Below, piece after piece: positions 15,566-37,069 of a stretch of DNA of 64,000 nt (within the stretch, counting starts at the first letter, position 1; the number at the start of each line of letters is the position of its first letter). The notes beneath the pieces are model-generated. The model was not told the origin of the DNA, made no database searches, and was given only the letters and a program-made list of their open reading frames with translations. The position numbers and the translations under genes were made by a program. The DNA comes from an uncultured Thermoleophilia bacterium (lineage in GTDB: Bacteria > Actinomycetota > Thermoleophilia > RBG-16-64-13). Location: contig CAVVNF010000014.1 of assembly GCA_963749535.1 (NCBI GenBank), forward strand, positions 2,335 through 66,334. The letters are read 5' to 3'.

Positions 15566-16378
15566 TCAGGAGTAGAAACCAGGCGCCCTTGTGTATTGTG
15601 CGAAGCTCTCGGCCTCGTGAGAGAAGAAGAGCTCGCATCCTTCCTCTGTGGCGAGCGAAGCGAGCCGCTCCATCGACTTGACGGAGGCCACGGGGTCGAA
15701 GTGGAAGCTCGCGATGCACCCGGTCTCGAGACTGCGGCTGCCGTACGCTGCGTCCGCCGTGAACAGCATCTTGCGTCCCGAGTCCAGCTCGACCAGAAGG
15801 CTGCAATGGCCGGCCGAGTGCCCGGGAGTCTCGATCAGCCGCACTCCATCCAGGATCTCCGTGTCGCCGGACAGCAGTTCGAACCGGGGCCGGAAAGTGC
15901 CCGCGCCCTGTGCCTCCGCGTCCGGTCTTCCACCAACCGGAATCCTTTCGATCTGGGGGGCGAAGCTCAGGTCGGAATAGCCGAGGGCCTCAAAGCTCTG
16001 GGGATGCTCGGCAGCCTCATATTCCAGCCGGTGGCACAAGAAGGAGGCGTTGTGCATCAGATTGTTGGCGCCGCAGTGGTCGAAATGGAAGTGTGAGTTG
16101 ACGACGTGGGTGACTTCGTCCACCCGGTATCCGGCTAGAGCGAGTTGCCCAGGCACGCTCTGCTCTGGGCTCTGCTCAGGCTTCTCGAAAGGCAGGACTC
16201 TCTGAGTGTGCTCGAGCCCGAACCCCGTATCGAACAAGATCTTGCCCTCTGGATGGTCTATCAGGACTGAGTAGCACGGGATCCGTACCGGGCCGCCGGG
16301 ACCGCGATTCCAGAAGATGTGGAACCCGTCCATCTCCAAAGTTCCTCCATCCAACAAGAAGACCCTTGATGCCTTCAT
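15566..16378 (-). CDS. pldA: 4-pyridoxolactonase homologue (MBL fold, AHL-lactonase family)
   Basis: HFHFDH metal motif; segments LLDGG..DG.H.FWNRGPGG, VLPFEKP, LGYSDLSF, FH.DPVA match my recollection of Mesorhizobium loti Mlr6805. Confidence 0.85.
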   Translation of the reverse strand: MKASRVFLLDGGTLEMDGFHIFWNRGPGGPVRIPCYSVLIDHPEGKILFDTGFGLEHTQRVLPFEKPEQSPEQSVPGQLALAGYRVDEVTHVVNSHFHFDHCGANNLMHNASFLCHRLEYEAAEHPQSFEALGYSDLSFAPQIERIPVGGRPDAEAQGAGTFRPRFELLSGDTEILDGVRLIETPGHSAGHCSLLVELDSGRKMLFTADAAYGSRSLETGCIASFHFDPVASVKSMERLASLATEEGCELFFSHEAESFAQYTRAPGFYS

Positions 16379-16486
16379 CCGCGCACCTCCCGCTGTGGAG
16401 CATCGAAATGGCTATTTCATGGCCGTGTGGTCATATCGGCGACTACTGAGCCGGAGCTAGTCTGACTGCCAGATGTGAGTATTGAG

Positions 16487-16515
16487 TTGCCATTAACTAC
16501 CTGACTTGATATAAG
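16487..16515 (+). promoter_or_regulatory. Candidate sigma70 promoter of the B6 operon
   Basis: TTGCCA-17 bp-TATAAG with extended TG; ACTACCTG in the spacer. Confidence 0.45.
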
Positions 16516-16597
16516 GACATTTAGGAAGCACAATCATTGCTGATTTGGTCCGGCAGGGCAAGAGGCCGGGCCTTCCGGGCCAAAGTCACTGCAGCAG

Positions 16598-17395
16598 TTG
16601 GGGGACTCCAAGTTGACTTCGAGCGTGGGTGATTCCTTGCCGGGTAGCGTCCCGACGCCTGATGTTTCGCGGCGGCCGTTGGTCTTCGACGCCCATATGC
16701 ATATTGGCGATTTCCCTCTCTTTGGCGTCTCGCTCGACCAAGCCGGCCTCGCCTCGACCATGCGTGCCAGCGGCATCGGCAAAGGCGTCATCTTCAGCCC
16801 TGACAACGCCGAAACGCTCCGTATCGTCGACAGCGATCCGGACGTGTACGGCATGGTGTGGGTCAATCCGCGCCAACCAGGCTACGTTGAAGACGCGGCA
16901 CGGTACCTGGACCACCCGAAGTTCCTCGGTGTCAAACTGCACCCGTTGATGGACGGCTATCTGCCCGCCGACCCAGCGATACATCCCATCATGAGACTTC
17001 TGGGGGAGCGGGGTCTGTCGGTACTCATTCACAGCGGTCACCCCATCTTTTCGCTACCGTGGAGCATCGAAGAACTGGCGGTGGCTTTCCCCGAGATCAA
17101 GATCATCATGGGGCACATGGGCCACAGCAACGTGGTCTACATCAATGCCTCCATCGACATCGCACTGCGCCGGCCGAACGTGTATCTGGAGACTTCCGGG
17201 ATGCCGATGCACACGAAGATACGCGAAGCCGTGGAGCGCGTCGGGCCCGATCGAGTCCTTTACGGGTCGGACGCGCCTTTCCACCATCCAGATGTGGAGA
17301 TGCTCAAGGTGAGGCTGAGTGGACTTTCCGACGACCTCGTCGAGAGGGTTTTGCGAACGAACGCCGAGCAGCTCTTCGGCGTTGCGTGCTGTTGA
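16598..17395 (+). CDS. Amidohydrolase_2 family metallohydrolase (start uncertain)
   Basis: DAHMH, GVKLHP, IHSG, GHMG, YGSDAPF. Confidence 0.88.
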   Translation: MGDSKLTSSVGDSLPGSVPTPDVSRRPLVFDAHMHIGDFPLFGVSLDQAGLASTMRASGIGKGVIFSPDNAETLRIVDSDPDVYGMVWVNPRQPGYVEDAARYLDHPKFLGVKLHPLMDGYLPADPAIHPIMRLLGERGLSVLIHSGHPIFSLPWSIEELAVAFPEIKIIMGHMGHSNVVYINASIDIALRRPNVYLETSGMPMHTKIREAVERVGPDRVLYGSDAPFHHPDVEMLKVRLSGLSDDLVERVLRTNAEQLFGVACC

Positions 17396-17566
17396 GAGAC
17401 CATCGCGAGGCTGCTTTGCGGCCGCGTGGGTTGGCGCGCTCTCGCCGTGTCATCAAAGGGAAAAGAGGCACAAGGGGGTGAGAACAAGGAGATAGGAAGC
17501 CTTGGGGGGAGGCGAGAGTATGCCCCCTTGCTCCGTAACGAAAGAAAGGGGAAGGGCATCGTGAGG

Positions 17567-18758
17567 ATGACAAGAAAACACGGTTTGCTACTGGTTCTTG
17601 CTTTGGTAGCAGTGCTCGCGATCGTGGGGGGCATCATGGCGGGCTGCGGCTCGTCCACCACGACCACCACCGCGGTAACGACTGCCACCACCGTCGCGCC
17701 TGGGACCACCACCACGGCCTCCGGGCCGACGACCACGGCCTCTGGGCCGACCACCACGGCCGCGCAAACGACGACGACCGTCGCCGCGGTCCCGAACACG
17801 AAGATCCACAAGATCGGTATCATCACGCCTGAGGTCGCCAAGGACTACGGTTGGAACCAGCAGGGCGTCCAATCCGCCAAGAACGTGGCCACCGCCCTTG
17901 GCGTTCCGATCGTCGTCAATGACGGCGCCGGCTACGGCGACATCTCTCCCATCCTGCGTCAGCTGCATCAATCCGGAGCGGACTTCATGATTGCCTTTGC
18001 GAGCGGCTACAACACCGTTGGTCCGACGGTGGCCCAGGAGCTAAAGATCCCGACGCTCGTGATCGGTGCCAATGAGGCAGGGCGACGTGCCCGGCCTGGT
18101 CCAGGACATCGAGACCAACGCGCAGGACGGTGCCTACCTGGCCGGCGTACTCGCGGCCAAGACCACGAAGAGCAAGACTGTCGGTATCGTCATCTCCGCA
18201 GACGACGAGAACTGGACCAAGATGGCGGCTGGTTTCGCCACCGGTGTCCGTGCCACCGACCCCAGCGTCAAGATGCTCATGGCTCAGGTAGGTCAAGCCG
18301 CCTACGCTGATGCCGCGGCAGCCAAACGGACCACGCAGAGCGTGATAGCGGGCGGAGCCGACATCATCTTCGGTATGGGCGACGGCGCCAGCTTCGGCGA
18401 GATGCAGGCCGTCGAGACTGCGACCCCACCCGCCGGCGCGACAAAAGTCTGGTTCATCGACGTGATCGGCGACAAGACCAGCATCGATACCAAGCATGTC
18501 CTCCTGTCGTCTCAGATCTGGGACTACACCCCAGCCTTCCAGGCCGCCGCTGACGCTCTGAACAGCGGGACCTTCGGTACCAAGGTCCTCTACATCAACC
18601 TTGAGAACAACGGCATCGGCCTCCTGAAGACCCCGTACATTCCCGATGATCTGTGGGCCACCATCCAGCAGGCCAAAGCCGACATCATCTCCGGCAAGAT
18701 CTCGGTTCCGGTCATCACGGACAAATCTCAGGTAACGAAGTTAGTCAACGGCCAATAA
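17567..18758 (+). CDS. BMP-family ABC substrate-binding lipoprotein (frameshift ~18080)
   Basis: Lipobox MAGC, TTTASGP linker repeats, DYGWNQQG, GAYLAGVLAA, GADIIFG. Confidence 0.9.
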
Positions 18759-18814
18759 CTCTCGACTAACCGGGGTTCGTGACCACCCCGGGCGACAACG
18801 ATTGGGCGGTGAAA

Positions 18815-20431
18815 ATGGCACCTTTAGGTGTGGTGGATAATGCCGCGGCGCCCGACGTAAAGTCTGTGGCGCCATCGGCAATCGAATTGATCGGAATCAC
18901 CAAACGATTTCCCGGGGTGGTCGCGAACGACGACGTGAGTCTCAAGCTCACCTGCGGAGAGGTCCATTGCCTCCTGGGTGAGAACGGGGCGGGCAAGTCG
19001 ACACTTATGAACATCCTATCGGGCATGTATCACGCCGATTCGGGCGAGATATTGCTCGACGGCAAGGCAGTAGAGATCGATTCACCAAAGAAGGCGCTGG
19101 AGCTGGGGATCGGGACGGTCTATCAGCACAGCACCTTGATTCCGGTGTTGACCGTGCTGGAGAACCTCATGTTGGGGATGGGAAAAGGGGTCCAGCTTCC
19201 CGTTAAGGCCTCGTTGACCGCTCTCAAGGAACTGGCCAGCAGCCTGGACATCGAGGTGGACCCGTACGCGGTGACCGGCCGCCTTTCTCTGGGACAGCAA
19301 CAGCAGATCGAGATAATCAAGGCCCTGTGGCAAGGTTCTCAGTTCCTCATCCTCGATGAGCCTACGTCGATGCTCACTCCCCAGGGCATCGCCGAATTGG
19401 AGAAGCTGATACGGCGGCTGACGGACCAAGGGTTGGCGATTGTCTTCATCACCCACAAGCTGCGCGAAGCGCTCGACGTAGGTGACCGCATCTCGATCCT
19501 GCGCCGCGGCCGCATGATCGCCGGGCTCGAGCCCGCCGAGCTCCATGGCGCTTCTCGAGAAGAGACTCAGGCAAAGATCATCAGCTTGATGTTCGGCCAG
19601 GAAAAAGCCCAACTCGCGGACGTGGCTGAGATCCGCGACGATATCTCCGGCAGGCATGGGCGACAGATCACCACGGCACCCATCCTGGAGATTGAGGACA
19701 TGAGCGTGGAACCACGGCGAGGCGAAGTAGGCGCTCACAACATCTCGCTCACGGTCAGGGCGGGAGAGATCATGGGGGTCGCCGGTGTCGACGGCAACGG
19801 GCAGAGGGAGCTGGCGGAAGCCATCGCCGGTCAGCGGCATGTTCACTCAGGCCACATCAAGTTCCTCGGGCACCCGATAACACACCTCAGCGTGGCCAAG
19901 CGTCAGCAAATGGGGTTGCGGTATGTGACCGACGACCGCTTGGGGGAGGGGATCGTCTCCTCCATCGACGTGGCTACCAACCTGGTGCTGAAGAGAATCG
20001 GCCAACCGCCGTTCTGGCGTTCCGCAGGCAGGGTCTGCACGCCGGTGATACACCAGACCGCCAGGGAGTTGGTGGAGGAGTTCGATATCCGGACGCCTTC
20101 GGTGACAACCGACTGCGGCACCCTCTCCGGAGGCAACCTCCAGAAGGTAGTGCTGGCCAGAGAGCTGTCTTTCGATCCGAAGTTCGTCGTGTACAACAAG
20201 CCCACATACGGTCTCGACGTCAAGACCACCTTGGCAGTCCGCGAACGCATCCGCAAGCTGGCCGAGAAAGATCAGGTAGCAGCTCTTCTTATCTCCACCG
20301 ACCTCGAGGAGCTACTTGATGTGTGCGACCGGATCGCGGTGCTCTTCAGAGGCAGGATCACCGGGATCGTCGAAAACCAGCCGGGCGCAGCAGAGGATAT
20401 CGGGCGTCTAATGATCGGCGGAGGCGAATAG
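18815..20431 (+). CDS. ABC transporter double ATPase (nucleoside/CUT2 type)
   Basis: GENGAGKST, ILDEPT, GVDGNGQ, LSGGNLQKVVLAREL. Confidence 0.93.
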   Translation: MAPLGVVDNAAAPDVKSVAPSAIELIGITKRFPGVVANDDVSLKLTCGEVHCLLGENGAGKSTLMNILSGMYHADSGEILLDGKAVEIDSPKKALELGIGTVYQHSTLIPVLTVLENLMLGMGKGVQLPVKASLTALKELASSLDIEVDPYAVTGRLSLGQQQQIEIIKALWQGSQFLILDEPTSMLTPQGIAELEKLIRRLTDQGLAIVFITHKLREALDVGDRISILRRGRMIAGLEPAELHGASREETQAKIISLMFGQEKAQLADVAEIRDDISGRHGRQITTAPILEIEDMSVEPRRGEVGAHNISLTVRAGEIMGVAGVDGNGQRELAEAIAGQRHVHSGHIKFLGHPITHLSVAKRQQMGLRYVTDDRLGEGIVSSIDVATNLVLKRIGQPPFWRSAGRVCTPVIHQTARELVEEFDIRTPSVTTDCGTLSGGNLQKVVLARELSFDPKFVVYNKPTYGLDVKTTLAVRERIRKLAEKDQVAALLISTDLEELLDVCDRIAVLFRGRITGIVENQPGAAEDIGRLMIGGGE

Positions 20432-21589
20432 TGGCTGAAGTCTTGGACAAAAGCAAGCCTGGGGTCGCGCAAAGCGAACCCAGCGCGAAACGCGGGTTTG
20501 GGGCGCGGGCGCGCAGAGCGGGCGTCGTCTTCGGCCAGGCATTGATCCCGATCATCCTTGCCATGATCGTCAACGGGATAATCCTGGCCATCATGGGCCG
20601 TAACCCGCTTGACGTTCTACGACCAGATGTTTTCATCCGCTCTGTTCAACACGCAAGGATTTGAACAGACCATAATCAGGATGGCTCCTTTGCTGCTGAT
20701 GGCGGCCGGTCTGATCGTGGCCTTCACCGCGGGCATCTGGAACATCGGAGGTGACGGTCAGTTCCTCATGGCAGTAGCGATCGTTTGTGGCTTGGGCCCA
20801 TGGCTGATGGGGGTCGTCCCGAGGGCTCTCGGTCTGATCATCCTGCTGATCGTTTCTTTTGTTGTAGGTGGAGCGTGGACCGTGGTGCCTGCGTTCCTAA
20901 AGGCCCGGTATGCGCTGAACGAGATCATCACCTCATTGATGATGGCTTTCATCGGTATCGATCTGGCCGACATGCTCATCAAAGGGCCCTTCCGAACCCA
21001 TCTGAACACGGTACCCCAGACGAACGTGATCCCGTTTCAGAAGCTGCTTCCGAATATTCCCGGCACGACTATCCACATAGGGATCATCCTTGCCCTTGTG
21101 GTTGCCGTAGTCGTTCACTGGGCGCTGACCCGGACGGGGTTCGGCCTGAGACTGAGAATACTGGGGGCGAATCCGAGAGCGGCCGTCCACTCCGGGATAT
21201 CCGTGTTCAAGATGACCATGATCGGCTTCTTCCTGAGCGGCGCCTTCATCGGCTTGGCGGGAGGCACGGAGATCCTTGGCGTGTGGGGGTACGTCCGGGC
21301 CGACTGGAACCCGGGCTGGGGCTTCATGATGTTCGCTATCGTGTTCCTCGCCCGGCTTAACATGCTGGCCACCATTCCCATCGTTGGCTTCCTGGCAGTC
21401 GTGCAGTTGGGCGGTCACATGGCGGCTCAAAACGTCAACGTGCCCGACAACTTCATACTGCTGTTCGTGGCTCTCATCCTTCTGTTCATGGCCGTCACCG
21501 ACCTGCTGACGGGCCGCTTGTTCGGTCGCAAGCCAAAAGAGATCGTCGCGGTGACGACGACGGGGACGCTGGAGGCTATCGATGAGTGA
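20431..21589 (+). CDS. ABC permease (frameshift ~20610)
   Basis: WNIGGDGQ, NEIITSLM, GANPRAAVHSGI. Confidence 0.9.
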
Positions 21590-22517
21590 GTTTTCCTCAG
21601 CTACTTTCTGGACCGCCCTCGTATCCGGCGCCATTCTGGCCGGCATGCCGCTGCTGCTTGGCGGCCTAGGCGAGACCATCGCAGAACGGGCGGGCCTTCT
21701 GACCATCGGCCTGGAAGGCTACATGTTATTCGGTGGTTACGTAGGGTTTGTCGCGGCCCTGTACTCACATTCCTCCGCGGCCGGGCTCCTGGCGGGTCTG
21801 GTAGCGGGAGTAGCAGGATCTTTGATCATGATGTTCCTGTGCGTTCACTGGGGTCTGGATCAGATCGTGGTGGGTATCGGTATCTTGTTCCTTTTCGAAG
21901 GACTGACGAGTGTCGCGCAGCGAGCGCAATTCGGCACCACCTATCCCCGTTTGGGAAACGTCCCGGAGGTGAAGATCCCGCTCCTCGACAGGATTCCCGC
22001 GGTGGGAGCCAGCCTGTTCAGTCAGCCGCTCGTCGTATATCTGAGCTTCATCCTGGTGGTCGTGATCTGGTGGGTGCTCAAGCACACCAACGCGGGGCTG
22101 AGCCTGCGGGCTGCGGGTGAAAAGCCGAAGGCTCTCGATGTTTCCGGGGTCAGCGTCTTGAAAGTCAGGTCCATAGCCGCACTGCTCACGGGAGCTCTCG
22201 GCGGCCTGGCCGGCGCCTATATGGCCATCATCGGGGCCGGTATCTTCGTCCCCTTCATGACCAAGGGTGCCGGTTTCATCTCGATAGTCGTCGCGATGCT
22301 CGGCCGAGGGAAGCCCGGCTTAGTGGTGGTGGGTGCGTTCATCTTCGGCCTGACGGTCTCTGTGGGCACCGCTCTTCAGATCGTGGGCGTGACTATCTCC
22401 ACAGACTTCATCAACATGCTGCCCTTCCTGATCGTCATGGCGGCGCTGATCTTGCTTGCTCGCCGGTCCGTTCTCCCGGCGGCGTTGGCTATCCCATACA
22501 AAAGAGAGGGTCATTAA
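21582..22517 (+). CDS. ABC permease
   Basis: ERAGLLTIGLEG, DQIVVG, RAAGEKPKAL, GFISIVVAMLG. Confidence 0.92.
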   Translation: MSEFSSATFWTALVSGAILAGMPLLLGGLGETIAERAGLLTIGLEGYMLFGGYVGFVAALYSHSSAAGLLAGLVAGVAGSLIMMFLCVHWGLDQIVVGIGILFLFEGLTSVAQRAQFGTTYPRLGNVPEVKIPLLDRIPAVGASLFSQPLVVYLSFILVVVIWWVLKHTNAGLSLRAAGEKPKALDVSGVSVLKVRSIAALLTGALGGLAGAYMAIIGAGIFVPFMTKGAGFISIVVAMLGRGKPGLVVVGAFIFGLTVSVGTALQIVGVTISTDFINMLPFLIVMAALILLARRSVLPAALAIPYKREGH

Positions 22518-22594: not shown

Positions 22595-23755
22595 ATGAAA
22601 CCTGCAGATTTCACGCTGAGTGCCGGTCCCACGACCGTTTCGGCCGAGGTCATGGCCGCCATGGGGCGGCCGATCATCTATCACTACGACCCGTCGTTCC
22701 TGGAGACGTTCAAGCGGACCTGCGAGAAGGCGGCTCAGGTCTTTCAAACCAAGGAAGACGTCATCCTCATGCAGGGTGAAGCAGTGGTGGGCCTCGAAGC
22801 TGCAGGCCGAGCCTGTGTAAGACCGGGAATGCCGGTCCTGAATCTGGTGTCGGGCGTCTTCGGCAAGGGGATGGGCGACTGGCTCCGCCAGTGGGGCGCC
22901 ACCGTCTATGAGATCACCGTGCCGTTCGACGAGGCCATCGATGCGGGGCAAGTGGAGAAGGCTCTCAAAGAGCATCCGGACGTGGAACTTGTCACCGTGG
23001 TCCATTCGGAGACCCCCTCGGGCACTCTGAACCCGGTGAAGGAGATAGGGCCGCTCTGCAAGGCGCACGGCGCGGTTACGCTGGTGGACTGCGTGTCCTC
23101 GCTCGCGGGGATGCCCTTCCTGCCGGACGACTGGCAACTGGACATCTGCGTGGCCGGGGCGCAGAAGTGCCTCTCCGGTCCTCCAGGGATCACCCCCATG
23201 ACCGTGAGCAAAGACGCGTGGGCCCTCGTCGACAAGAACCCGGACGCGCTACGGTGGTCGTTCGTGGCTCTGCTCGACTGGCGGGAGATCTACCTCAAGG
23301 GCGGGCGCTTCCCGTTCACGCCGTCTGTGTCCGACGTCTTCGGCCTCGAGGCCTCGCTCGACTGGGTGTTGGAGCAAGGGTTGGACGCGTGCATCGCCCA
23401 GCACAGCCTGGCGGCCGCGGCCTGCCGCGCCGGCATCAAGGCCATGGGTCTGAAGCTGTGGCCGAAGAGCGAAGCGATCATGTCCACCTGCACCACCGCC
23501 ATCGCGGTTCCGGACGGGCTCACCGACATCCAGGTGCGCAACCACGTTCGCCAGCATTACGGCGTGATGATCTCGGCCGGGCAGAATGCCGGCAACCTGG
23601 TCCGCATTGGCCACATGGGAGTGACCGCCCGGTCGATGTATCCGGTGGCCGGTCTGTCGGCCCTTGGCCAGAGCCTGCGCGACCTGGGCGTGAAAGTGGA
23701 TATCGGCGCCGGGCTTGAGGCTGCGCTGGAGGTGATCAGCAAGGGCAACGCGTAG
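22595..23755 (+). CDS. ppaT: Pyridoxamine--pyruvate aminotransferase homologue (class V fold)
   Basis: TL.AGP, YHYDP.F, QGEAVVGLEAA (PPAT-type Glu), LNLVSGVFGKG, QKCL, FPFTPSVS, RIGHMG, resembling M. loti Mlr6806 as recalled. Confidence 0.8.
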   Translation: MKPADFTLSAGPTTVSAEVMAAMGRPIIYHYDPSFLETFKRTCEKAAQVFQTKEDVILMQGEAVVGLEAAGRACVRPGMPVLNLVSGVFGKGMGDWLRQWGATVYEITVPFDEAIDAGQVEKALKEHPDVELVTVVHSETPSGTLNPVKEIGPLCKAHGAVTLVDCVSSLAGMPFLPDDWQLDICVAGAQKCLSGPPGITPMTVSKDAWALVDKNPDALRWSFVALLDWREIYLKGGRFPFTPSVSDVFGLEASLDWVLEQGLDACIAQHSLAAAACRAGIKAMGLKLWPKSEAIMSTCTTAIAVPDGLTDIQVRNHVRQHYGVMISAGQNAGNLVRIGHMGVTARSMYPVAGLSALGQSLRDLGVKVDIGAGLEAALEVISKGNA

Positions 23756-23797
23756 GGAGAGGAAGCTTAGTCCAGGGTGCATTGGAGGAGGTTTGAT

Positions 23798-24208
23798 TTG
23801 AGCCACGTGGTGTTTCACAAGGAGTTGTGCACGGATTGCCGGATGTGCTCCCAGATCTGTTCGATGAACAAACTTGGCAGCGTCACGCCGGCGAGCTCGT
23901 GCATACAGATAGATAGGGACCGCTCGATCTACTACGGGGACATGTCGTGCCGGGTGTGTGACATGACCCACGATCGCGCCTGCGTGGAGGCCTGCCCGGT
24001 GGAGGCGCTCACGTACGACGCCGACCTCGACGTGGTGCGGTTCGACGCGGACCTTTGCACCGAGTGTCTGGCCTGCATGGACGAGTGTCCCAATGTGGGC
24101 CATGACGCCAAATCGGGCCGCATAATGATCTGCGATCTCTGCGACGGCGATCCCATGTGCGTGAAATGGTGTCCGGAAGGCGCCCTGACGTGGGAGGCGC
24201 AGGCATGA
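23798..24208 (+). CDS. 4Fe-4S ferredoxin-like small subunit of AOR
   Basis: CTDCRMCSQIC, CRVC, CVEACP, CTECLACMDECP, CDLCDGDPMCVKWCP. Confidence 0.9.
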   Translation: MSHVVFHKELCTDCRMCSQICSMNKLGSVTPASSCIQIDRDRSIYYGDMSCRVCDMTHDRACVEACPVEALTYDADLDVVRFDADLCTECLACMDECPNVGHDAKSGRIMICDLCDGDPMCVKWCPEGALTWEAQA

Positions 24209-26037: not shown

Positions 26038-26277
26038 ATGCGGCTGGGGGTCACTTTGTTCGGGCCTTACGCGAAGCTGCTCCCCCCTGGCAGTGAGGGG
26101 GGCCGGACTTCTGTTGAGCTGCGGGAGCCGGCCACTCTGGAGCAGGTGCTCGATCACCTGGGCGTCCCGGAGGGGGGGCGCACGTACGTGACGGTGAACG
26201 GTCGACGGGTCGAGTTGGCCAGCGCGGTGGCCGAGGGAGACGAGATACGCGTGATCGTCCCTTTGGGCGGCGGATGA
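26038..26277 (+). CDS. MoaD/ThiS sulfur carrier
   Basis: 79 aa, C-terminal GG, follows AOR. Confidence 0.85.
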   Translation: MRLGVTLFGPYAKLLPPGSEGGRTSVELREPATLEQVLDHLGVPEGGRTYVTVNGRRVELASAVAEGDEIRVIVPLGGG

Positions 26278-29514: not shown

Positions 29515-31395
29515 ATGGAGGCACAACCCGGCGGAGCCTGGTGGGGCAAAGTCTTGTTTGTCGATGTTGGGACCGGAGAGACTCGCGAGGAAGCACTCGA
29601 TCGCGACGCGGCCCGCGACTTCGTCGGCGGGCGCGGTCTCGGAGCCTTCTATCTGTTCAAGCATCTGAAAGCAGGCACCGATCCACTGAGCCCCGAGAAC
29701 CCGCTGATCTTCGCGAGCGGCCCACTCTCTGGCACTTCCTGCCCTGGCTCGGCCCGCGCAGCCGTGGTCACCAAATCGCCTCAGAGCGGCCTGTACACGT
29801 TCGCCGTCACCGGCGGCGATCTGGGTCCGGCACTGAAGAAGTGCGGCTATGACGTGATCATCATCACCGGCAAAGCGGAAAACCCGGTGTATTTGGAAGT
29901 AGGACCCAACGGCGCGCGCATCCGGGATGCGGCGCACCTGTGGGGGCTGGACACGCAGGTAGCTCAGCAGATGATCAAGGAAGAGCGGCGGAACGACGAC
30001 ATCGCCATTACCTGCATCGGGCAGGGCGGCGAGAGACTGGTGCCGTATGCCTGTCTGATAAATGAGCGCCGCGCCCTCGGCCGGGGCGGCGCCGGTGCCG
30101 TCATGGGCTCGAAGAATATGAAGGCATTGGTGGTCAAGAAGGGCCCCAGCTCGCCGCCACTCGCCGATCCCCAGGCTTTCCGGGAGGCATCGCGCAGCGC
30201 GACGGCTCAGTGCCGCAAGCACCCCTTCACGTCCGGGCCTCTTTCTTCGTTCGGCTCGGTGAGCACGGTGGCCGTGACAGTGAACAGCTCCATCATGCCC
30301 GCGGACAACTGGCAGCGCTCGACGCCGGTGGAGTTGGGCAAGCAGCTGTTCGGCAACGTCCTTCGGGAGAAATACCTTCTCAAGGATGTAGCGAGCGGGG
30401 ATCCCTGCACCTCGAAGTGCTCCAAGCTCACTGTGGTCAGGGAGGGTCCCTATGCGGGCTCCTTCACGGAGGGGCCGGAGTACGAGACGGTCTACGCAGT
30501 CGGTACCGCTTGCGGCATCTTCGACCTCGGCGTGATAATCCACGCCGACATGCTGTGCGACCTCTACGGGATCGACACGATGTCCGTGGGTGGCACCATC
30601 GCCTTCGCCATGGAGTGCTACGAGAAGGGCCTGCTGACCAAGGAAGACACCGGCGGCATCGACCTCCGCTTCGGCAACGCTGAAGCGATGGTGCAACTGG
30701 TACACGACGCTGCTTTCCGGCAAGGCTTTGGCGAGAAGATCGCCATCGGCAGCCGGGCGCTGGCGGCGGAGATAGGACACGGCTCCGAAGTCTTCGCCAT
30801 GCATACCAAAGGCGTTGAGGTGGGGGGTTACGACCCACGCGGCGCCAAGGGCATGGCGCTGGTCTACGGTTGCGGACCCCGCGGGGGCTGCCACCATGCC
30901 GGTGGCTACACCGTCACGGCGGAACTCACGAACCCAGCCATGGACCGCTATGCGGACTCGGGCAAGGTGCCCATCGTGACCTTCACCCGCAACCGTCGCG
31001 CCGCGGCCGCCGATTCCGGCGGCACCTGCGCGTTCCTGACCGTCGGCATGGACGACGCCGTGCTTGCGGGCATGATAGCCGCCGCGAGTGGCAACCCCAT
31101 GACCGCCCCGGAGATGATCCTGGCCGGTGAAAGGATCAGCATGCTCGAGCGGGTGCTCAACGTTCGTGAGGGACTGCGCGCGGAAGGCGACGCGATTCCA
31201 CCGCGGATGATCACGGAGAGCGTCCCGGAAGGGGTCACGGCGGGACACACCGTGGATTGGGACCTCATGCGTTCAGAGTTCTATCAGATTTCCGAACTGG
31301 ACCCGGTGACGTCGATGCCCACCAGAGAAAAGCTGGCCAAGGTGAGCATGGAGTGGGTGCTCGAAGACCCCATCGTCGCCGGCCTGGTGAAATAG
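29515..31395 (+). CDS. aor: Aldehyde:ferredoxin oxidoreductase family (W-pterin), copy 2
   Basis: VGGRGLG, KSPQSG, GRGGAGAVMGSKNMKA, GPEYET, YGIDTMS, RGGCH. Confidence 0.92.
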   Translation: MEAQPGGAWWGKVLFVDVGTGETREEALDRDAARDFVGGRGLGAFYLFKHLKAGTDPLSPENPLIFASGPLSGTSCPGSARAAVVTKSPQSGLYTFAVTGGDLGPALKKCGYDVIIITGKAENPVYLEVGPNGARIRDAAHLWGLDTQVAQQMIKEERRNDDIAITCIGQGGERLVPYACLINERRALGRGGAGAVMGSKNMKALVVKKGPSSPPLADPQAFREASRSATAQCRKHPFTSGPLSSFGSVSTVAVTVNSSIMPADNWQRSTPVELGKQLFGNVLREKYLLKDVASGDPCTSKCSKLTVVREGPYAGSFTEGPEYETVYAVGTACGIFDLGVIIHADMLCDLYGIDTMSVGGTIAFAMECYEKGLLTKEDTGGIDLRFGNAEAMVQLVHDAAFRQGFGEKIAIGSRALAAEIGHGSEVFAMHTKGVEVGGYDPRGAKGMALVYGCGPRGGCHHAGGYTVTAELTNPAMDRYADSGKVPIVTFTRNRRAAAADSGGTCAFLTVGMDDAVLAGMIAAASGNPMTAPEMILAGERISMLERVLNVREGLRAEGDAIPPRMITESVPEGVTAGHTVDWDLMRSEFYQISELDPVTSMPTREKLAKVSMEWVLEDPIVAGLVK

Positions 31396-31406: not shown

Positions 31407-33003
31407 GTGGCCTACTACCGCGATTTTAGGGAGTACATCGCCAAACTCGATTCGATGGGCTTGGTGCGCCACATCTCCACTCCCATCAACAAGGACACCG
31501 AGCTCATGCCGCTGGTGCGCCTGCAGTTCCGCGGGCTTCCCATCGAGCAGCGCACGGCATTCGTCTTCGACAACATCCACGATGTGCTCGGCAAGCAGTA
31601 CAACGGCTCACTTGCCGTCTGCGTGCTGGGCGGCAGCCGGCAGATCTACGCCGCCGCTTTGGGGTGCGAGCCGGCCGACATCACCAAACGCTGGGCCGAG
31701 GTGCACCAGAACTACATCGAGCCCAAGATGGTGAGCGACGGCCCCTGCAAAGAGGAGATCCACGTCGGCGACAATCTTCTTGAGCACGACGGCATCCTCG
31801 AGTTCCCGCATCCCATCTCCACCCCGGGCTTCGACCCGGCGCCCTACTTCACATCGCCTTACTGGGTGACCAAGGACCCGGAGACCGGGGAGCGCAACGT
31901 GGGCACCTACCGGGCCATGGTGAAGGGTCCCGCCCGCACGGGCGTGATGGCTCACCAGTCGCAGCACATCGGCATCCACTTTCAGAAGATCCAGCGGATG
32001 GGCAAGAACTGGCTGGAGGCCGCGGTCGTTATCGGCTGCACGCCCGCAGTGGGACTTTGCAGCGTCTCCAAGGTGCCGTATTCGGTGGACGAGTACGCCG
32101 TGGCCGGCGGGATCGCGGGCGAGCCGATCGAGCTGGTGAAGTGCGAGACCGTGGACCTCGAAGTGCCGGCGACCGCGGAGATCGTAATCGAAGGCTGGGT
32201 GGACACCACCTTCCGCGAGAAGGAAGCGCCTTTCGGCGAGTACACCGGCTACATGGGCGGACGGGTGATAAACCCGGTCTTCAACGTGACCGCCATCACC
32301 CACCGCAAGAGACCCGTGTACCAGGCGTTCCTCAGCCAGTTCCCGCCCTCGGAGAGCAGCCTCCTCCGCAAGCTTGGCTACGACGCGGCTTATCTGAAGT
32401 TCCTGCAGCACGACTGCAACATCCCCGGGGTCCTCGACGTGCAGCTCCACGAGGCCACCGGCAGCTACGGTCTCATGGTCATCCAGCTCAAGAAGACTCA
32501 CCCTGCGCAGGCCTGGCAGGCGCTGAACGCGGCGGTGGGTTTCGACCCCACCATCGGCAAGGTGATCGTGGCGGTGGACGACGACATCGATCCCGCCGAT
32601 CCGGACGCCGTCAACTGGGCGCTCGCCTTCCGCATGCAGCCGCACACGGATTCCCGCGTGGTGACCCACAAAGCCTCGATCCTCGACCCGTCTTCGGCGC
32701 CTCCGGAAGCCTCGGTGGACGTCCAACGCTTCCCGCCCCCGGTGGGGACCTCGGGGCTGCTGATCGACGCCACGCGCAAGTGGGGCTATCCGCCCACTTC
32801 GCTGCCGGCCAAGGAGTTCATGGAGAAGCGCCATCGAGCGTTGGAAGGCGGAAGGGCTGCCCGCGCTGACTCTCAAGAAGCCGTGGTTCGGCTACGAGCT
32901 GGGCCATTGGACCGACGAGGAACGAGAAGACGCAGCCAAGGCTATCAGGGGCGAGTACCTGGATACCGGCGTGCGGCTGCAGCAGCATAGAGAGGATCTT
33001 TAG
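31407..33003 (+). CDS. UbiD-family (prFMN) decarboxylase, frameshift near C-terminus
   Basis: NVGTYR, EAPFGEYTGY, PPSESS, VDDDIDP, LIDATRK. Confidence 0.9.
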
Positions 33004-33099
33004 GCAAAGAGGATATGTAGGCAGCGAGGATTGTAGGCGTGGCCTCCGCCGCACTCGGCCGGCGGGCGCTACCGAATCGGGCTAGTTAAGGAGAGTTTG

Positions 33100-34326
33100 A
33101 TGGCTGACATTTCCGTCGACTTCGCGGGTCTTAAGCTCAAGAACCCGTTCATCATCGCTTCGTCGGAGCTGACGAACAAGGTGGAGAAGATCAAGATCGC
33201 CGAAGAGCACGGCGCAGCAGCGGTCAGCCTGAAGCTGACCTTCCTCCAGATCCCTCTGTACGCCCGGCCGTATCACATCATCGAGAAAGAGGGCGCGTTC
33301 TACTCGCCGTCTGGTGAGCGCATGCGGGTGGACAAGACTCAGAAGCTCATCCAGGAATGCAAGGAGCAGACCGACCTCAAGATCATCGCCAACATGATGG
33401 GCCCCGGCGAGGACCTGGAAGGTTGGGCGAAGCTCGCCCGCATGCTGGAGGAAGCCGGAGCGGACATGCTCGAGCTGAACATGTCGTGCCCGAACCTCGG
33501 TCTGATGGCCAAGCAGTTAGGCGTGGACGAGGAGCCGGAACTTGGCGCCACCCTAGGCAAAGACCCGACCATGGCCGGCAAAGTGACGAAGGCCGTCACC
33601 GACGCGGTGAAGATCCCGGTGATGCCGAAGATGACGCCGGAAGCCAATACCATGATGGTGGCCAAGTCGGTCGAGAAGAACGGCGCCTCCGCCTGTTCCG
33701 CGATCAACTGCCCGCAGTCTCTTCCGCCGCTGGATATCGATCACGGGGGCAAGCCGTTCTACCCGTCCACGGGGAACCAGTCCTTCGCGGGTCTTTGCGG
33801 CCCGTGGATCCGCCCGCTGGCCTACCGGCACGTAGCGCAGATGCGCACCGTCTGCCCGGATCTTCCTATAGCCGGCGGCGGTGGGCTCATGAACTGGCGC
33901 CACTCGGTGGAGATGATCATGTACGGCGCCACCGTCCTCACCTACTGCTCGCTGCTTTACCTCAAGGGCTACAAGGCCTTCGCCAAGATCGAGCCGGGCA
34001 TGCACAAGTTCATGGATGAGCACGGCTACGCCACTCTGGCCGACATGCGCGGGATCGCGCTGAAGTACATCGTGACCCCCAAAGAGGTCGACTACATCCC
34101 GATGCTGCCGGACTTCGACCTGGAAAAATGCAACGGCTGCGGCCTCTGCGCTGCGCCCGGCCACTGCGAGTGCATCGAGATCGTAGACAAGAAGGCCGTC
34201 ATGGTCGCGCCGAGAGAATGCTATTCCTGCGGGGTGTGCTACTTCCTGTGCCCGAAAGATGCCATCCACATGAAGGAAGTGCCCATGGAAATGACCCGGG
34301 CCGGCGCGGCTCTCGAAGAGGACTGA
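33100..34326 (+). CDS. PreA/DHODH-like FMN TIM-barrel reductase with C-terminal ferredoxin domain
   Basis: LKLKNPFIIASS, ELNMSCPN, KMTP, IAGGGG, CNGCGLC, CYSCGVCYFLCP. Confidence 0.88.
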   Translation: MADISVDFAGLKLKNPFIIASSELTNKVEKIKIAEEHGAAAVSLKLTFLQIPLYARPYHIIEKEGAFYSPSGERMRVDKTQKLIQECKEQTDLKIIANMMGPGEDLEGWAKLARMLEEAGADMLELNMSCPNLGLMAKQLGVDEEPELGATLGKDPTMAGKVTKAVTDAVKIPVMPKMTPEANTMMVAKSVEKNGASACSAINCPQSLPPLDIDHGGKPFYPSTGNQSFAGLCGPWIRPLAYRHVAQMRTVCPDLPIAGGGGLMNWRHSVEMIMYGATVLTYCSLLYLKGYKAFAKIEPGMHKFMDEHGYATLADMRGIALKYIVTPKEVDYIPMLPDFDLEKCNGCGLCAAPGHCECIEIVDKKAVMVAPRECYSCGVCYFLCPKDAIHMKEVPMEMTRAGAALEED

Positions 34327-34480: not shown

Positions 34481-35482
34481 ATGAAGTCATACACATCACT
34501 GATCAAGGGAGCCCGGCTGGTCGTTGAGACCTGCTTTGCTGTGAAGAAGGGCGATGCCGTCCTCATCATCGCCGACGAAGATCACATGCGCGAAGCCACC
34601 GCCATGGCGGGCGTGGCCGTGTCGCTCGGGGCCTACCCGGTCATCGCGGATATTTCCCATCACGTGGCGGCGGGCCTGGCTTCGATGAAGGTCTCCATGG
34701 AGCCGGCCAAGAACCTGGCGGCCGCCATGAAGGCCTCCGACGTCATCATCATCACCACTCAGTTGGAGTGGGCCAATCGGTTCGCGCACGTCAACCCAGT
34801 GGCGGAGAGCGTCAACCTCGGGGCCAAGATCGGCTCGGTGGAAGAAGGCATGGCCGATTGGGACCTCACGCTGGAAGACATCAATGAGACTGTCGGCAGA
34901 GCCGAGAAGCTCATGGCTGCCTTGGAAGGGGTGGAGTGGGTGCGGGTGACCAACCCCGCGGGCACCGACGTCCGTGTGTGCATCAAGGGCCGCCCGCCGC
35001 TGAAGGTCGTCCCCATCAAGGGCGCCGGCGAGATGATGGGGCCGGTACCACTGTGGGGCGAAGTGGCCTACGCCGCGGTGGAGGACAAGACCGAAGGCAT
35101 CATCGTGGTGGATGGCATCATGCTGGGCGTGGGCGTCTACGGGTCATTGAAAGAGCCCATAACCTGGGAGATCAAGGACGGCAGGGCCGTGAGCATCACC
35201 GGTGGCCCGGACGCCGAGAAACTGCGTAACGTGGTGGCGGGTTCGGATGCGAACGCCAATGTCGTGGCCGAGTTTGCCATGGGCACGAGCACGAAGTCTC
35301 CGATGGGTTCCGCCTCGGAGAAAGGGCTGCTCGGGACCGTTCACTTCGCCCTCGGAGACAACTCGCATTGCTATCCGGGCGGCTGCAGCCACAGTAGTCT
35401 CCACTTGGACGGCAACCTGCGGAATGTCACCGTGGAAGCGAACGGCCGCGTGCTCATCAAAGACGGTCAGATGGCCTTCTGA
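34481..35482 (+). CDS. M29 aminopeptidase-T/NicX-like metallo-enzyme
   Basis: GTD, GEV, AEFAMG, EK...GTVHFALGDN, HLDG. Confidence 0.8.
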   Translation: MKSYTSLIKGARLVVETCFAVKKGDAVLIIADEDHMREATAMAGVAVSLGAYPVIADISHHVAAGLASMKVSMEPAKNLAAAMKASDVIIITTQLEWANRFAHVNPVAESVNLGAKIGSVEEGMADWDLTLEDINETVGRAEKLMAALEGVEWVRVTNPAGTDVRVCIKGRPPLKVVPIKGAGEMMGPVPLWGEVAYAAVEDKTEGIIVVDGIMLGVGVYGSLKEPITWEIKDGRAVSITGGPDAEKLRNVVAGSDANANVVAEFAMGTSTKSPMGSASEKGLLGTVHFALGDNSHCYPGGCSHSSLHLDGNLRNVTVEANGRVLIKDGQMAF

Positions 35483-35862
35483 TGGCCGCCGACGGCATGG
35501 ACAAGCAAGTCAGGGTCGTAGACCTGAGCGAAGGTAAGCGCACCGATCTTTCGGATGGAAGTTGGGTCTGCGAGCTCGTTTCGGGGCCTCTGAACGGCGC
35601 CGAAGCGACCACCATGGGCTTCTCCACTTGGAAACCCGGCGCTGCAACGTCGCAGATGATCCACGAGACCGACGAGCTCGCCTTTATCGTCTCCGGACAA
35701 GGCAAGCTTTCCGTCGGCGCCGATTTCGTCTCCTATCGGGCCGGCCAGGGGCTTCTCATCCCGGCTGGCGTGCCGCATGGCGTGGTCAACGACAGCGACC
35801 AAGATATGACCATGGTGTACATCTTTTCCCACCCGGAGTACCCGCCGACAAGACCGGCGTAA
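35482..35862 (+). CDS. Cupin-domain protein
   Basis: HETDELAFIVSGQG, IPAGVPHGVVN. Confidence 0.85.
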   Translation: MAADGMDKQVRVVDLSEGKRTDLSDGSWVCELVSGPLNGAEATTMGFSTWKPGAATSQMIHETDELAFIVSGQGKLSVGADFVSYRAGQGLLIPAGVPHGVVNDSDQDMTMVYIFSHPEYPPTRPA

Positions 35863-35956
35863 GTCGAAAGGGGAGTCGCGTTCGGGCTCACGCGTGAGGA
35901 GAGCTTAGGTGACGGGGCGCCGCGCGGGGCGCTGAAGACAGAAACGGAGGCGGGCA

Positions 35957-37069
35957 GTGATCGTAGGTTGTCCCAAAGAGATCAAGAACAACGAGAGCCG
36001 TGTGGGCATCACTCCCGCGGGGGTTTGGGCATTGACGCAAGCGGGCCACGAGTGCCTCATCGAGAAGTCCGCGGGTGTGGGAAGCGGGTTTCCGGACGAG
36101 GAGTACGTGACTCGCGGCGCTAAGCTGGTGGACGAGGCCGCGGATGTCTGGGCGCGGTCCCAGTTGGTGGTGAAGGTCAAGGAGCCTCTCCCCTCTGAGT
36201 ACCAGTACTTCCGTGACGACCTCACGCTCTTCACCTACCTGCACCTGGCTCCGGTTCCTGAGCTCACAAAGGCGCTTCTTACGAGCGGGATAGTGGGCAT
36301 AGCCTATGAGACCGTGCAGCTCGAAGACGGCAGTCTGCCGCTGCTGATTCCCATGAGCGAGGTGGCGGGCAGGATGGCCATCACGGTGGGTTCCTACTAC
36401 CTGGGCTATCCGCATGGCGGGCTGGGACGGCTGATCGGCGGAGTACCCGGAGTGGCCCCGGCCGAGGTGCTGATCATCGGGGGCGGCATAGTCGGCATCA
36501 ATGCCGCGAAGATGGCCGCGGGTATGGGCGCGCGCGTCACCATCCTCGACCTCGACGCCGACCGCATGAAGTATCTGGATGATGTCCTGCCTCCCAACTG
36601 CGTCACCGTGCACTCCGACCGCAGTGCCGTCGAGCGGTATCTGGCTTCGGCGGATCTCGTGGTGGGGGCGGTTCTGGTGGCCGGGACGGTGGCTCCGAAA
36701 CTGGTGACCCGCGACATGCTCCACCTTATGAAGCCCCGTGCGGTGGCGGTGGACGTGGCCGTGGACCAAGGGGGCTGTTTCGAAACGACCCGAGCAACCA
36801 CCCATCAGGATCCCGTTTACAGCGAAGAAGGCGTTCTGCACTATGCGGTGGCCAACATGCCTGGTGCCTACCCGCAGACCTCCACGATGGCCCTGACCAA
36901 CGTGACCCTGCCGTACGTGCTGGCGCTTGCCAACAAAGGCGTGACGAAAGCCATCCAGGAAGACGATTCCCTTAGGCTGGGCGTGAACGTCTGGCACGGT
37001 CATCTGACCTGCTCCGGCGTCGCGTCTTCTCAAGGGTTGACCTGCGATCTACTGGAGGCACTGCTCTAG
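35957..37069 (+). CDS. ald: Alanine dehydrogenase
   Basis: PKEIKNNESRV, FTYLHLA, PMSEVAGR, DVAVDQGGCFET, VANMPGA. Confidence 0.96.
   Translation: MIVGCPKEIKNNESRVGITPAGVWALTQAGHECLIEKSAGVGSGFPDEEYVTRGAKLVDEAADVWARSQLVVKVKEPLPSEYQYFRDDLTLFTYLHLAPVPELTKALLTSGIVGIAYETVQLEDGSLPLLIPMSEVAGRMAITVGSYYLGYPHGGLGRLIGGVPGVAPAEVLIIGGGIVGINAAKMAAGMGARVTILDLDADRMKYLDDVLPPNCVTVHSDRSAVERYLASADLVVGAVLVAGTVAPKLVTRDMLHLMKPRAVAVDVAVDQGGCFETTRATTHQDPVYSEEGVLHYAVANMPGAYPQTSTMALTNVTLPYVLALANKGVTKAIQEDDSLRLGVNVWHGHLTCSGVASSQGLTCDLLEALL

Follow-up and report, generated by a model that had tools for sequence, protein, structure and literature searches.

A candidate vitamin B6 uptake and catabolic cluster with replaced enzymology in an uncultured Thermoleophilia bacterium

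Here, we analyse a stretch of DNA of 64,000 nucleotides (the window; G000:C14:2335-66334) from the metagenome-assembled genome of an uncultured Thermoleophilia bacterium (G000, the genome under study; 2.75 Mb in 41 contigs, 84% complete). The 20 genes within positions 15566-37069 of this window probably form a cluster for the uptake and catabolism of vitamin B6 (pyridoxamine/pyridoxal), with a lower half that resembles nicotinate fermentation and employs enzyme families that need no O2. The assignments of the importer, the aminotransferase, and the lactonase, as well as the conservation of the gene set, rest on homology and genomic context; for the steps after 4-pyridoxate, we infer the reactions, their order, the direction of the aldehyde:ferredoxin oxidoreductases (AORs), and the independence of O2. 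To our knowledge, the B6 catabolism described so far in bacteria comprises two aerobic routes, both of which need oxidases and ring-opening oxygenases; the literature searched, subscription journals not being covered, yielded no account of a B6 route that is anaerobic or linked to AORs. A B6 catabolic cluster in which these enzymes are replaced would be a novel means of degrading the vitamin.

Entry proteins of the vitamin B6 type

The first gene of the cluster (15566-16378; the only one on the minus strand, with all others on the plus strand) encodes a protein of the metallo-beta-lactamase fold that passes NF047925, the equivalog model for 4-pyridoxolactonase, with 373.1 bits (cut-off 325), and reaches 123.5 bits with the NCBIfam model of AiiA (cut-off 375). 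Among solved structures, its best match is the 4-pyridoxolactonase 3aj3 with 296 bits, while the best acyl-homoserine lactone (AHL) lactonase, again AiiA, obtains 106. We collected 551 homologues at E≤1e-30, many of which carry the annotation 4-pyridoxolactonase in their source. By equivalog-level homology, the protein is a 4-pyridoxolactonase, with this activity being predicted. The aminotransferase (22595-23755) aligns over residues 6-382 with PDB entry 2z9u at 360.6 bits, the next chain having 156.2; we take 2z9u to be the pyridoxamine-pyruvate aminotransferase of Mesorhizobium loti, with its PDB listing naming an "aspartate aminotransferase". Likewise, its best NCBIfam family is NF046070, pyridoxamine-pyruvate transaminase, with 438.6 bits, followed by BhcA with 205.6. 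Orthologues are present in 11 relatives at 66-98% identity. The initial annotation had anchored its B6 reading on these two proteins, and by NCBIfam and PDB scores both do fall among B6 enzymes, apart from generic AHL lactonases and from serine-pyruvate aminotransferases.

The genes for a putative importer lie between the two. They encode a BMP-type substrate-binding lipoprotein (17426-18758, in two overlapping frames, the C-terminal part matching PF02608 Bmp), an ABC ATPase with two ABC_tran domains (18779-20431; PF00005 in two stretches), and two ABC permeases (20609-21589 and 21582-22517; PF02653). For the binding protein, an intact orthologue (399 residues; L054:7819-9018) has NF047927, titled "putative B6 ABC transporter substrate-binding protein", as its sole NCBIfam match (356.1 bits, cut-off 400) and also matches Pfam Bmp. 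To place these genes in a wider context, we surveyed lactonase loci with one genome per species, took the best 80 of 460 stretches with a lactonase relative, and searched them with the window proteins via tblastn (E≤1e-15). Homologues of the two permeases are found near the lactonase in 69 and 67 of these 80 loci, of the ATPase in 61, of the binding protein in 60, and of the aminotransferase in 48. Most of the loci belong to Alphaproteobacteria and Acidimicrobiia. The adjacency to 4-pyridoxolactonase in 60-69 of the 80 loci and the title of the NCBI model suggest that the BMP ABC importer noted in the initial annotation is of the B6 type.

At the other end of the cluster lies a gene for L-alanine dehydrogenase (35957-37069; TIGR00518, 498 bits against a cut-off of 391.85). 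Its presence fits a recycling of alanine and bulk flux through the aminotransferase. Besides the window, this gene is found at the cluster end only in G002, G022, and G450, with two genera represented.

Conservation of the gene set in relatives

To obtain information on conservation, we compared 61 genomes of one Thermoleophilia family. The AOR-type cluster occurs in nine of these, spread over six genera: the window itself, G002 (of the same genus), G033, G014 (split over two contigs), G007, G036 (partial, as its contig ends), G448, G022, and G450. In G007, the cluster is rearranged so that the genes for the binding protein, an iron-type alcohol dehydrogenase (Fe-ADH), and the second AOR are on the other side. 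The whole set is therefore kept together in other genomes despite rearrangement, which supports the reading of the initial annotation.

Two variants deserve mention. G022 and G450 are without the lactonase and without a zinc-type alcohol dehydrogenase (Zn-ADH), and their aminotransferase is 35% identical to that of the window. Five other genomes (G006, G035, G029, G030, and G020) have only the binding protein, the ABC genes, and the aminotransferase, at the same chromosomal site. In another family, G053 encodes an aminotransferase of 46% identity close to an AOR and a ferredoxin. This locus was considered as an independent instance of the cluster and rejected; its neighbours are unrelated (PylD-like, ATP-grasp, B12 radical SAM, and glycine cleavage genes).

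Proposed side-chain oxidation and decarboxylation by other enzyme families

In the pathway that we propose, the BMP-type ABC importer would bring the vitamer into the cell, as homology and context suggest. The aminotransferase would then convert pyridoxamine and pyruvate to pyridoxal and alanine, the latter being recycled by alanine dehydrogenase. Going by its co-variation with the lactonase, the Zn-ADH would oxidise pyridoxal to 4-pyridoxolactone, which the lactonase would hydrolyse to 4-pyridoxate. Up to this point, the proposal shares its aminotransferase and 4-pyridoxolactonase with pathway I of Mesorhizobium loti and Pseudomonas MA-1, and a BMP-type importer beside the lactonase is common to many genomes. 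The presumed intermediates (pyridoxal, 4-pyridoxolactone, 4-pyridoxate, a dicarboxylate, and a 5-carboxylate) are those of pathway I as well.

The enzymes, however, are largely different. Pathway I employs a short-chain dehydrogenase/reductase (SDR) as pyridoxal dehydrogenase, a GMC 4-pyridoxate dehydrogenase, an aldehyde dehydrogenase of the 3HCDH type, a decarboxylase of the class II aldolase type, a flavin oxygenase acting on 3-hydroxy-2-methylpyridine-5-carboxylate (MHPC), and an alpha/beta amidohydrolase. None of these is present in the cluster, which instead has the Zn-ADH, the Fe-ADH, two AORs with ferredoxin, a UbiD, an Amidohydro_2 protein, a PreA-like reductase, a protein of the NicX/M29 fold, and a cupin. 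The initial annotation had noted the lack of aerobic-route oxidase and oxygenase families, and this is upheld by Pfam: the cluster contains no GMC oxidase and no FAD_binding_3 gene, nor does Pfam detect a 3HCDH-type aldehyde dehydrogenase or a class II aldolase-type decarboxylase there. Elsewhere in G000, 3HCDH homologues are found only at other loci. The class II aldolase query had no match in this 84% complete genome, and no MHPC-oxygenase-type gene of full length was detected; the genome-wide search gave just weak, partial matches to FAD_binding_3 (41.5 bits over positions 2-177) and to GMC (45.9 bits over positions 63-204, on contig C29).

We next consider the enzymes that could take the place of the missing ones. 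Gene families were assigned via Pfam or NCBIfam, except for two small genes flanking the first AOR that were read from their translations by eye. The first encodes a Cys-rich ferredoxin-like electron carrier (23777-24208) with several CxxCxxCxxxC-type motifs, and is kept ahead of AOR1 in relatives. The second is a 79-residue MoaD/ThiS-like open reading frame (ORF) with a GGG end (26038-26277), kept after AOR1 in G033, G014, G007, and G448. AOR1 (24157-26010) and AOR2 (29515-31395) each contain AFOR_N and AFOR_C. Against the PDB, AOR1 scores 434.9 bits with 8c0z, presumably the AOR of Aromatoleum aromaticum, 431.2 with 1aor, and 208.6 with the BamB chain 4z3w; AOR2 scores 434.6 bits with 9mqx and 408.8 with 1aor. 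By homology, both are true members of the AOR subfamily, a tungsten-type family, with both AFOR domains full-length; their metal would be W or Mo. A dearomatising reductase of the BamB type was considered and rejected: AOR1, AOR2, and the third AOR of G007 are all nearest to classical AORs, and BamB obtains 162-209 bits. The likeness to the AOR of Pyrococcus furiosus (1aor) and to 8c0z extends over the full length at 409-435 bits, and AOR1 is flanked by the ferredoxin-like and MoaD-like genes; what differs from known AORs is the setting in a vitamin catabolic operon, which is new, and the lack of a nearby FAD/NAD subunit. About eight AOR paralogues are encoded in the G000 genome.

The two ADHs follow after a GntR/UTRA regulator of the HutC type (26310-27101; PF00392 and PF07702) that is retained inside the cluster among relatives. 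The Zn-ADH (27186-28223; ADH_N and ADH_zinc_N) is a candidate pyridoxal 4-dehydrogenase because it co-varies with the lactonase: both are present in G002, G033, G014, G007, and G448, and both are absent in G022 and G450. In addition, three of the 80 loci (Acidimicrobiia-type) encode a homologue with 53% identity close to their lactonase and aminotransferase. Where the pair is missing, an AOR may oxidise pyridoxal directly. The Fe-ADH (28359-29511) is frameshifted, with the Fe-ADH domain and a truncated C-terminal domain in two frames, and has an intact orthologue of 382 residues (L119:2314-3462). Judging from the chemistry required, the Fe-ADH and the two AORs with ferredoxin would oxidise the side-chain alcohol and aldehydes, including the 5-hydroxymethyl group, to carboxylates.

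The UbiD and/or the Amidohydro_2 enzyme would then remove a carboxylate to give MHPC (that is, 5-hydroxy-6-methylnicotinate). The UbiD (approximately 31407-32990, C-terminus out of frame), a member of the family of decarboxylases that use prenylated flavin mononucleotide (prFMN), passes TIGR00148 with 256.7 bits (cut-off 244.85), and its best PDB chains are 6h6x and 6h6v with 202 bits. The entry 6H6V represents HmfF of Pelotomaculum, the prFMN-dependent decarboxylase of 2,5-furandicarboxylate (PMC8988006). With its nearest solved relative thus a heteroaromatic dicarboxylate decarboxylase, the suggestion in the initial annotation that the UbiD decarboxylates a pyridine acid gains support. The reaction proposed here would be of the same kind as that of HmfF; the relationship is distant, however, and the substrate in the window would be a pyridine dicarboxylate or 4-pyridoxate. 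Supply of prFMN could come from a UbiX-type gene, a 198-residue Flavoprotein-family ORF at C13:38995-39486. The Amidohydro_2-family metal enzyme (16598-17395; PF04909, 108.8 bits) has weak PDB matches that include 5-carboxyvanillate, salicylate, and gamma-resorcylate decarboxylases, and is a candidate decarboxylase or ring-opening hydrolase. Its orthologues (51-92% identity) are found in eight relatives with the AOR-type cluster, and in three of the 80 lactonase loci.

A proposed lower half reminiscent of nicotinate fermentation

Downstream of the UbiD lies a gene for a PreA-like flavin/Fe-S reductase (33097-34326; DHO_dh and Fer4), whose best NCBIfam model is NF006183, PreA, with 231.4 bits (cut-off 335). 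Like PreA of the PreT/PreA pair, the protein combines a DHO_dh flavin domain with C-terminal 2x[4Fe-4S], and it would reduce a ring C=C bond beside a lactam before hydrolysis. In contrast to PreT/PreA, there is no PreT-like partner in the window cluster, the score of 231 bits is below the 335 of the model, and the electron donor would presumably be the ferredoxin. PreA-like orthologues are found in eight of the 61 family genomes, the window genome counted.

In several relatives, the interval between the PreA-like gene and the gene for the NicX/M29-fold protein is occupied. G448, G033, and G014 have a molybdenum (Mo) enzyme of the xanthine dehydrogenase family with an FAD subunit there, followed in G448 by genes for cofactor maturation (YqeC-MocA and XdhC). 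In NCBIfam, the Mo enzyme best matches the models of 4-hydroxybenzoyl-CoA reductase alpha (669.6 bits) and XdhA (619.1 bits), without reaching the cut-off of either. In G007, G022, and G450, the same interval holds a third AOR, which in G007 (L026:6561-10660) precedes a 679-residue GlpC/HdrD-like Fe-S protein with a CCG domain. A third AOR in one group and a Mo hydroxylase in the other, at the same position, is possibly a non-orthologous replacement. The window and G002 have no gene in this interval. G000 does have an orthologue of the Mo enzyme at C26:206794-210429 (L123:8774-12433), with 82% identity and as reciprocal best match, in three frames.

The Mo hydroxylase, the PreA-like reductase, and the NicX/M29-like hydrolase candidate are encoded together in G448, G033, and G014. 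In nicotinate fermentation by Eubacterium barkeri, the sequence of events is hydroxylation, ring saturation, and hydrolytic C-N opening by enamidase (PMC9304392). The proposed parallel consists of a Mo hydroxylase, a ring reductase, metal hydrolases, and a substituted nicotinate as presumed substrate. The likeness is in mechanism only; ring reduction here would fall to a PreA-like enzyme, and hydrolysis to candidates of the NicX/M29 fold and the Amidohydro_2 type. By analogy with this fermentation, the Mo enzyme (or third AOR) might modify the ring, and the PreA-like reductase might partly saturate it, as in reductive pyrimidine catabolism. The NicX/M29-fold metallohydrolase and the cupin could then, again by analogy, carry out hydrolytic ring opening or deacylation.

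Around the copy of the Mo enzyme on C26, genes for pyrogallol-hydroxytransferase-like molybdoenzymes and an IclR regulator are found, which hints at anaerobic polyphenol metabolism in that neighbourhood.

Evidence against the B6 catabolic reading and the question of substrate

A number of findings weigh against the reading of the cluster as a B6 catabolic route. The assignments after the lactonase draw on family membership and position only. The aminotransferase, at 438.6 bits, is below the equivalog cut-off of NF046070 (600). The Mo enzyme lies outside the cluster in G000. Three genes are frameshifted in the window, namely those for the binding protein, the Fe-ADH, and the UbiD. With regard to distribution, the PreA-like query has no hit (E≤1e-90) in any of 400 genomes of an even phylum sample besides G000, and AOR1, the ferredoxin, the MoaD-like ORF, and Amidohydro_2 are found in just three of the 80 lactonase loci, all within the own family; the set is conserved, but within the searched genomes in only one lineage. 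The same side of the balance holds several observations that bear on O2: the closest solved structure of the NicX/M29-like protein is NicX, an O2-dependent pyridine-ring dioxygenase; its nearest Atlas clusters bear Pfam "NicX"; the cupin retains a His/Glu/His site (H61/E65/H99) that could bind Fe(II); four of five cluster-bearing relatives have COX1-family (heme-copper oxidase) genes; and G000 encodes cytochrome bd. Finally, no PdxS was found in the seven checked genomes with an aminotransferase orthologue, which also fits salvage as the role of part of the cluster.

With respect to the substrate, the entry enzymes might be recruited paralogues in a cluster that degrades another substituted pyridine or a hydroxymethyl-aromatic of peat. 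The sub-threshold score of the aminotransferase would agree with this, as would the G022/G450 variant with its divergent aminotransferase and without lactonase, the several lactonase paralogues in many family genomes (including a copy on C32), and the pyrogallol-hydroxytransferase-like genes beside the Mo enzyme on C26. On the other hand, the lactonase of the cluster is above its equivalog cut-off, and the trio of importer, lactonase, and aminotransferase is the same as in B6 loci of many Alphaproteobacteria and Acidimicrobiia. Even for the divergent aminotransferase of G022, the best family is still the pyridoxamine-pyruvate transaminase model (358 bits). We therefore regard a substrate other than B6 as quite improbable.

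The second lactonase gene of G000 mentioned above (C32:12382-13191; L120:10380-11405) has 351.9 bits, above the cut-off, and is 47% identical to the cluster copy. Its neighbours are an unrelated 344-residue Amidohydro_2 gene and a major facilitator superfamily (MFS) transporter, and no other cluster homologues were found within 10 kb. Such paralogues are frequent among the family members: 23 of the 61 genomes have matches, and for 16 of these the score exceeds the cut-off.

The NicX/M29-fold protein, the cupin, and the requirement for oxygen

The NicX/M29-fold protein (34481-35482) matches PF02073 with 39.9 bits (cut-off 27), over its C-terminal half only. A single-sequence search returned NicX alone, and weakly (E 0.13). 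With a profile of 42 family members, NicX (7cn3) is found over the full length with E 3.8e-28, and the aminopeptidases PepS, AmpS, and AmpT follow with 1.6e-15 to 1e-8 (PepS 1.6e-15). The AlphaFold2 model (predicted local distance difference test score 95.4) gave a similar ranking in Foldseek, with NicX at a TM score of 0.80 (root-mean-square deviation 3.4 Å) and the aminopeptidases at 0.64-0.72. NicX is thus the best solved match both by profile and by fold, and both proteins belong to pyridine catabolic clusters.

The metal-binding residues give a different picture. The Fe(II) ligands of NicX are His265, Ser302, His318, and Asp320, and each alanine mutant is inactive (PMC7910607). The family keeps two of the four ligands, with H308 and D310 being the equivalents of His318 and Asp320; in the family alignment, His265 is replaced by E264 (at least 90% conserved) and Ser302 by Ala. 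NicX also has a substrate-positioning His105 (PMC7910607), with which H103 aligns. Two further NicX residues, Glu177 and His189, lack conservation in the family alignment. Within the family, H288, H308, and D310 are invariant, with at least 90% conservation at E194 and E264; all five align with conserved Glu/His/Asp positions of PepS, while NicX has Leu and Phe at the positions of H288 and E194. This Glu/Glu/His/His/Asp set we take to be the metal ligands of M29 enzymes. Since the aminopeptidase-type residues are kept and two NicX Fe ligands are replaced, we somewhat favour a metallohydrolase on a NicX-like scaffold over a dioxygenase.

The start of the small cupin gene (35482-35862; Cupin_2) overlaps the stop of the NicX/M29-like gene. 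H61, E62, E65, H99, and N103 of the cupin are invariant in five orthologues. The pair formed by the two proteins also occurs, with 51-52% and 36-39% identity, in four lactonase loci of the Acidimicrobiia type (L059:729-8544, L064, L052, and L060), where SDR, 3HCDH, and class II aldolase families lie alongside. Because the pair co-occurs there with families of the canonical upper route, it would act in the lower half, after the 5-carboxylate. These loci also contain a CoxSML-type Mo hydroxylase and a luciferase-like (monooxygenase-family) gene, and no flavin MHPC-oxygenase family was found among their annotated genes. From gene content, the Acidimicrobiia-type clusters seem to encode another lower route not described so far, in bacteria that are presumably aerobic.

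The most far-reaching version of the B6 reading is complete O2-independent mineralisation, in which AORs with ferredoxin, the UbiD, hydroxylation with water by the Mo enzyme or by an AOR with a GlpC/HdrD-like partner, PreA-like reduction, and hydrolytic opening by the NicX-fold protein would follow one another; we consider this possible and put it forward tentatively. The initial annotation had likewise proposed a route independent of O2, and this stands as a proposal: no aerobic lower-route family is present in the cluster, but the NicX fold, the metal triad of the cupin, and the COX1-family genes of relatives speak against it.

A related explanation retains B6 catabolism and makes it dependent on O2, as a hybrid for micro-oxic soil. 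Here, the Mo enzyme would first hydroxylate the ring, whose cleavage would then fall to the NicX-fold protein or the cupin as an Fe(II) dioxygenase, on the model of aerobic nicotinate degradation, and the PreA-like reductase would act on the opened product. Such a route would be in line with NicX being the closest solved relative by profile and fold, with the "NicX" Pfam label of the nearest Atlas clusters, with the alignment of H103 to the substrate-positioning histidine, and with the invariant H61/E65/H99 of the cupin. The luciferase-like gene beside the pair in Acidimicrobiia-type clusters, the COX1-family genes, and cytochrome bd point the same way. Against it stand the replacement of two Fe ligands, essential in NicX (PMC7910607), by Glu and Ala, the retention of all aminopeptidase-type metal residues, and the lack of conservation of Glu177 and His189. 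Moreover, three to four AOR-family enzymes are encoded in the same operon, and members of this family are usually O2-sensitive. Lastly, no COX1 was found in the 84% complete G000 genome or in G448. Taken together, we judge an O2-dependent ring cleavage rather unlikely. As for the hosts, they need not be strict anaerobes, given the COX1-family genes in four of the five relatives and the cytochrome bd of G000.

If a fully anoxic route were true, this would be the first anaerobic pathway of B6 catabolism, and it would imply a hydrolytic, non-oxygenase function within the broad "NicX" Pfam family. A cluster working as proposed would provide new substrates for the W-AOR, UbiD, and NicX-fold families that are of biotechnological interest, a function for a widespread uncharacterised NicX/M29 branch, and an explanation of vitamin turnover in anoxic waterlogged soils. 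For each of the steps, the cluster supplies concrete candidate genes that can be expressed.

Sequences overlapping parts of the window were found in public runs (20 rows from 17 studies) labelled as peat, permafrost, or wetland metagenome, with word shares of the window of 0.07-0.46. RNA-library contigs of runs X15 and X16 overlie pieces of most cluster genes, which is a weak hint and no proof of transcription. Stretches lacking contig cover, like the low word shares of RNA runs, were given no weight.

Frameshifts in three cluster genes

The frameshifts in the window are single-base changes. In the gene for the binding protein, there is an insertion of one base near 18076 relative to G002, with a likely start near 17567; contig cover at this position is too thin to judge, so that the comparison there is with G002. 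The Fe-ADH gene has an extra base at 29173 that both G002 and a DNA contig of run X1 lack, and an RNA-library contig of run X15 spans 29173 without the deletion seen in X1. The extra base in the UbiD gene, at approximately 32829, is absent in runs X1, X2, and X16, and UbiD orthologues align only to residue 524. Split genes are present across the G000 assembly: cytochrome bd, two AORs, an aminotransferase on C34, and the Mo enzyme, which is in three pieces. Compared with the window, the sister assembly G002 shows dozens of 1-base indels, and these fall within genes that the window has intact. Such indels are typical of uncorrected long-read assemblies. Because the additional bases are absent in G002 or other runs, split genes are widespread, and G002 has indels in genes intact here, the three frameshifts are probably assembly errors, with the metagenome-assembled genome carrying uncorrected long-read indels.

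The same data could be read as decay of the cluster in G000, with the genes for the binding protein, Fe-ADH, and UbiD being true pseudogenes and the hydroxylase module no longer being at the locus. The three single-base insertions that set the window apart from relatives (approximately 18076, 29173, and 32829), an RNA-library contig of X15 that covers 29173 without a deletion, and the lack of a gene between the PreA-like and NicX/M29-like genes in the window and G002 would all be expected in this case. However, split genes occur throughout the assembly, G002 differs by dozens of 1-base indels within genes that are intact in the window, the extra bases are missing from G002 or from short-read contigs of other runs, and an orthologue of the Mo enzyme is retained on C26. 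Decay is therefore an unlikely explanation.

Two further genes outside the cluster, for an M20 peptidase (38127-39506) and the first radical SAM protein (12614-14221), look truncated or mis-framed.

Apparent lack of PdxS and a possible link to salvage

Of the genomes with an aminotransferase orthologue, seven were checked (G000, G001, G002, G006, G007, G014, and G020) and none yielded PdxS; all 11 family genomes with PdxS are without this orthologue. The genomes in these counts are related and not independent samples, and several are incomplete. PdxJ was found in none of 37 genomes, and no PdxK-family kinase above the cut-off was found in the 84% complete G000 genome. The mutual exclusion of importer-aminotransferase and PdxS suggests a B6 auxotrophy that is rescued by uptake. 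The importer-aminotransferase pair may thus also serve the acquisition of B6, converting pyridoxamine to pyridoxal without the O2-dependent PdxH. If true, auxotrophy, uptake, and degradation of B6 would be joined in one uncultured actinobacterial lineage.

Could salvage be the function of the whole cluster, or of its importer-aminotransferase core? In that case, lactonase and AORs would act in reverse to recover pyridoxal reductively from 4-pyridoxolactone and 4-pyridoxate in auxotrophs. AORs can reduce acids, and five genomes hold just the binding protein, the ABC genes, and the aminotransferase at the same site, in agreement with the PdxS and PdxJ distributions given above. Salvage provides no role, however, for the UbiD, the PreA-like reductase, the NicX/M29-like protein, the cupin, and the Mo enzyme, and the NicX/M29-like and cupin genes co-occur elsewhere with canonical catabolic genes. 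In addition, the alanine dehydrogenase within the cluster suggests bulk flux, a PdxK-family kinase above the cut-off was not found in the 84% complete genome, and the PdxS counts come from related, partly incomplete genomes. A salvage function in place of catabolism appears improbable to us, and we retain B6 catabolism as the preferred reading.

Cluster boundaries and neighbouring genes

All genes named in the initial annotation were recovered at or near the positions given there by ORF, Pfam, and NCBIfam analysis. It had overlooked the three single-base frameshifts, the hydroxylase/third-AOR module of relatives, and the link to the loss of PdxS. The limits that it had set for the cluster, 15566-37069, are also correct. 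Upstream, at 8162-15474, a Rex-like regulator, a second UbiD-family gene, UbiA, UbiE, and two radical SAM genes of the CofH/MqnC type form a menaquinone operon of the futalosine type, so that the cluster starts at the lactonase. The upstream radical SAM genes were considered as members of the cluster and rejected, as they belong to this operon. In all relatives examined, the menaquinone operon adjoins the importer. Downstream of the cluster, the minus-strand ORF at 39686-40798 is probably an antisense artefact. The region 39704-43340 encodes a 211-residue Fer4 ORF followed by an 846-residue ORF, which carries a 4Fe-4S dicluster domain at its C-terminus and has no family match at its N-terminus.

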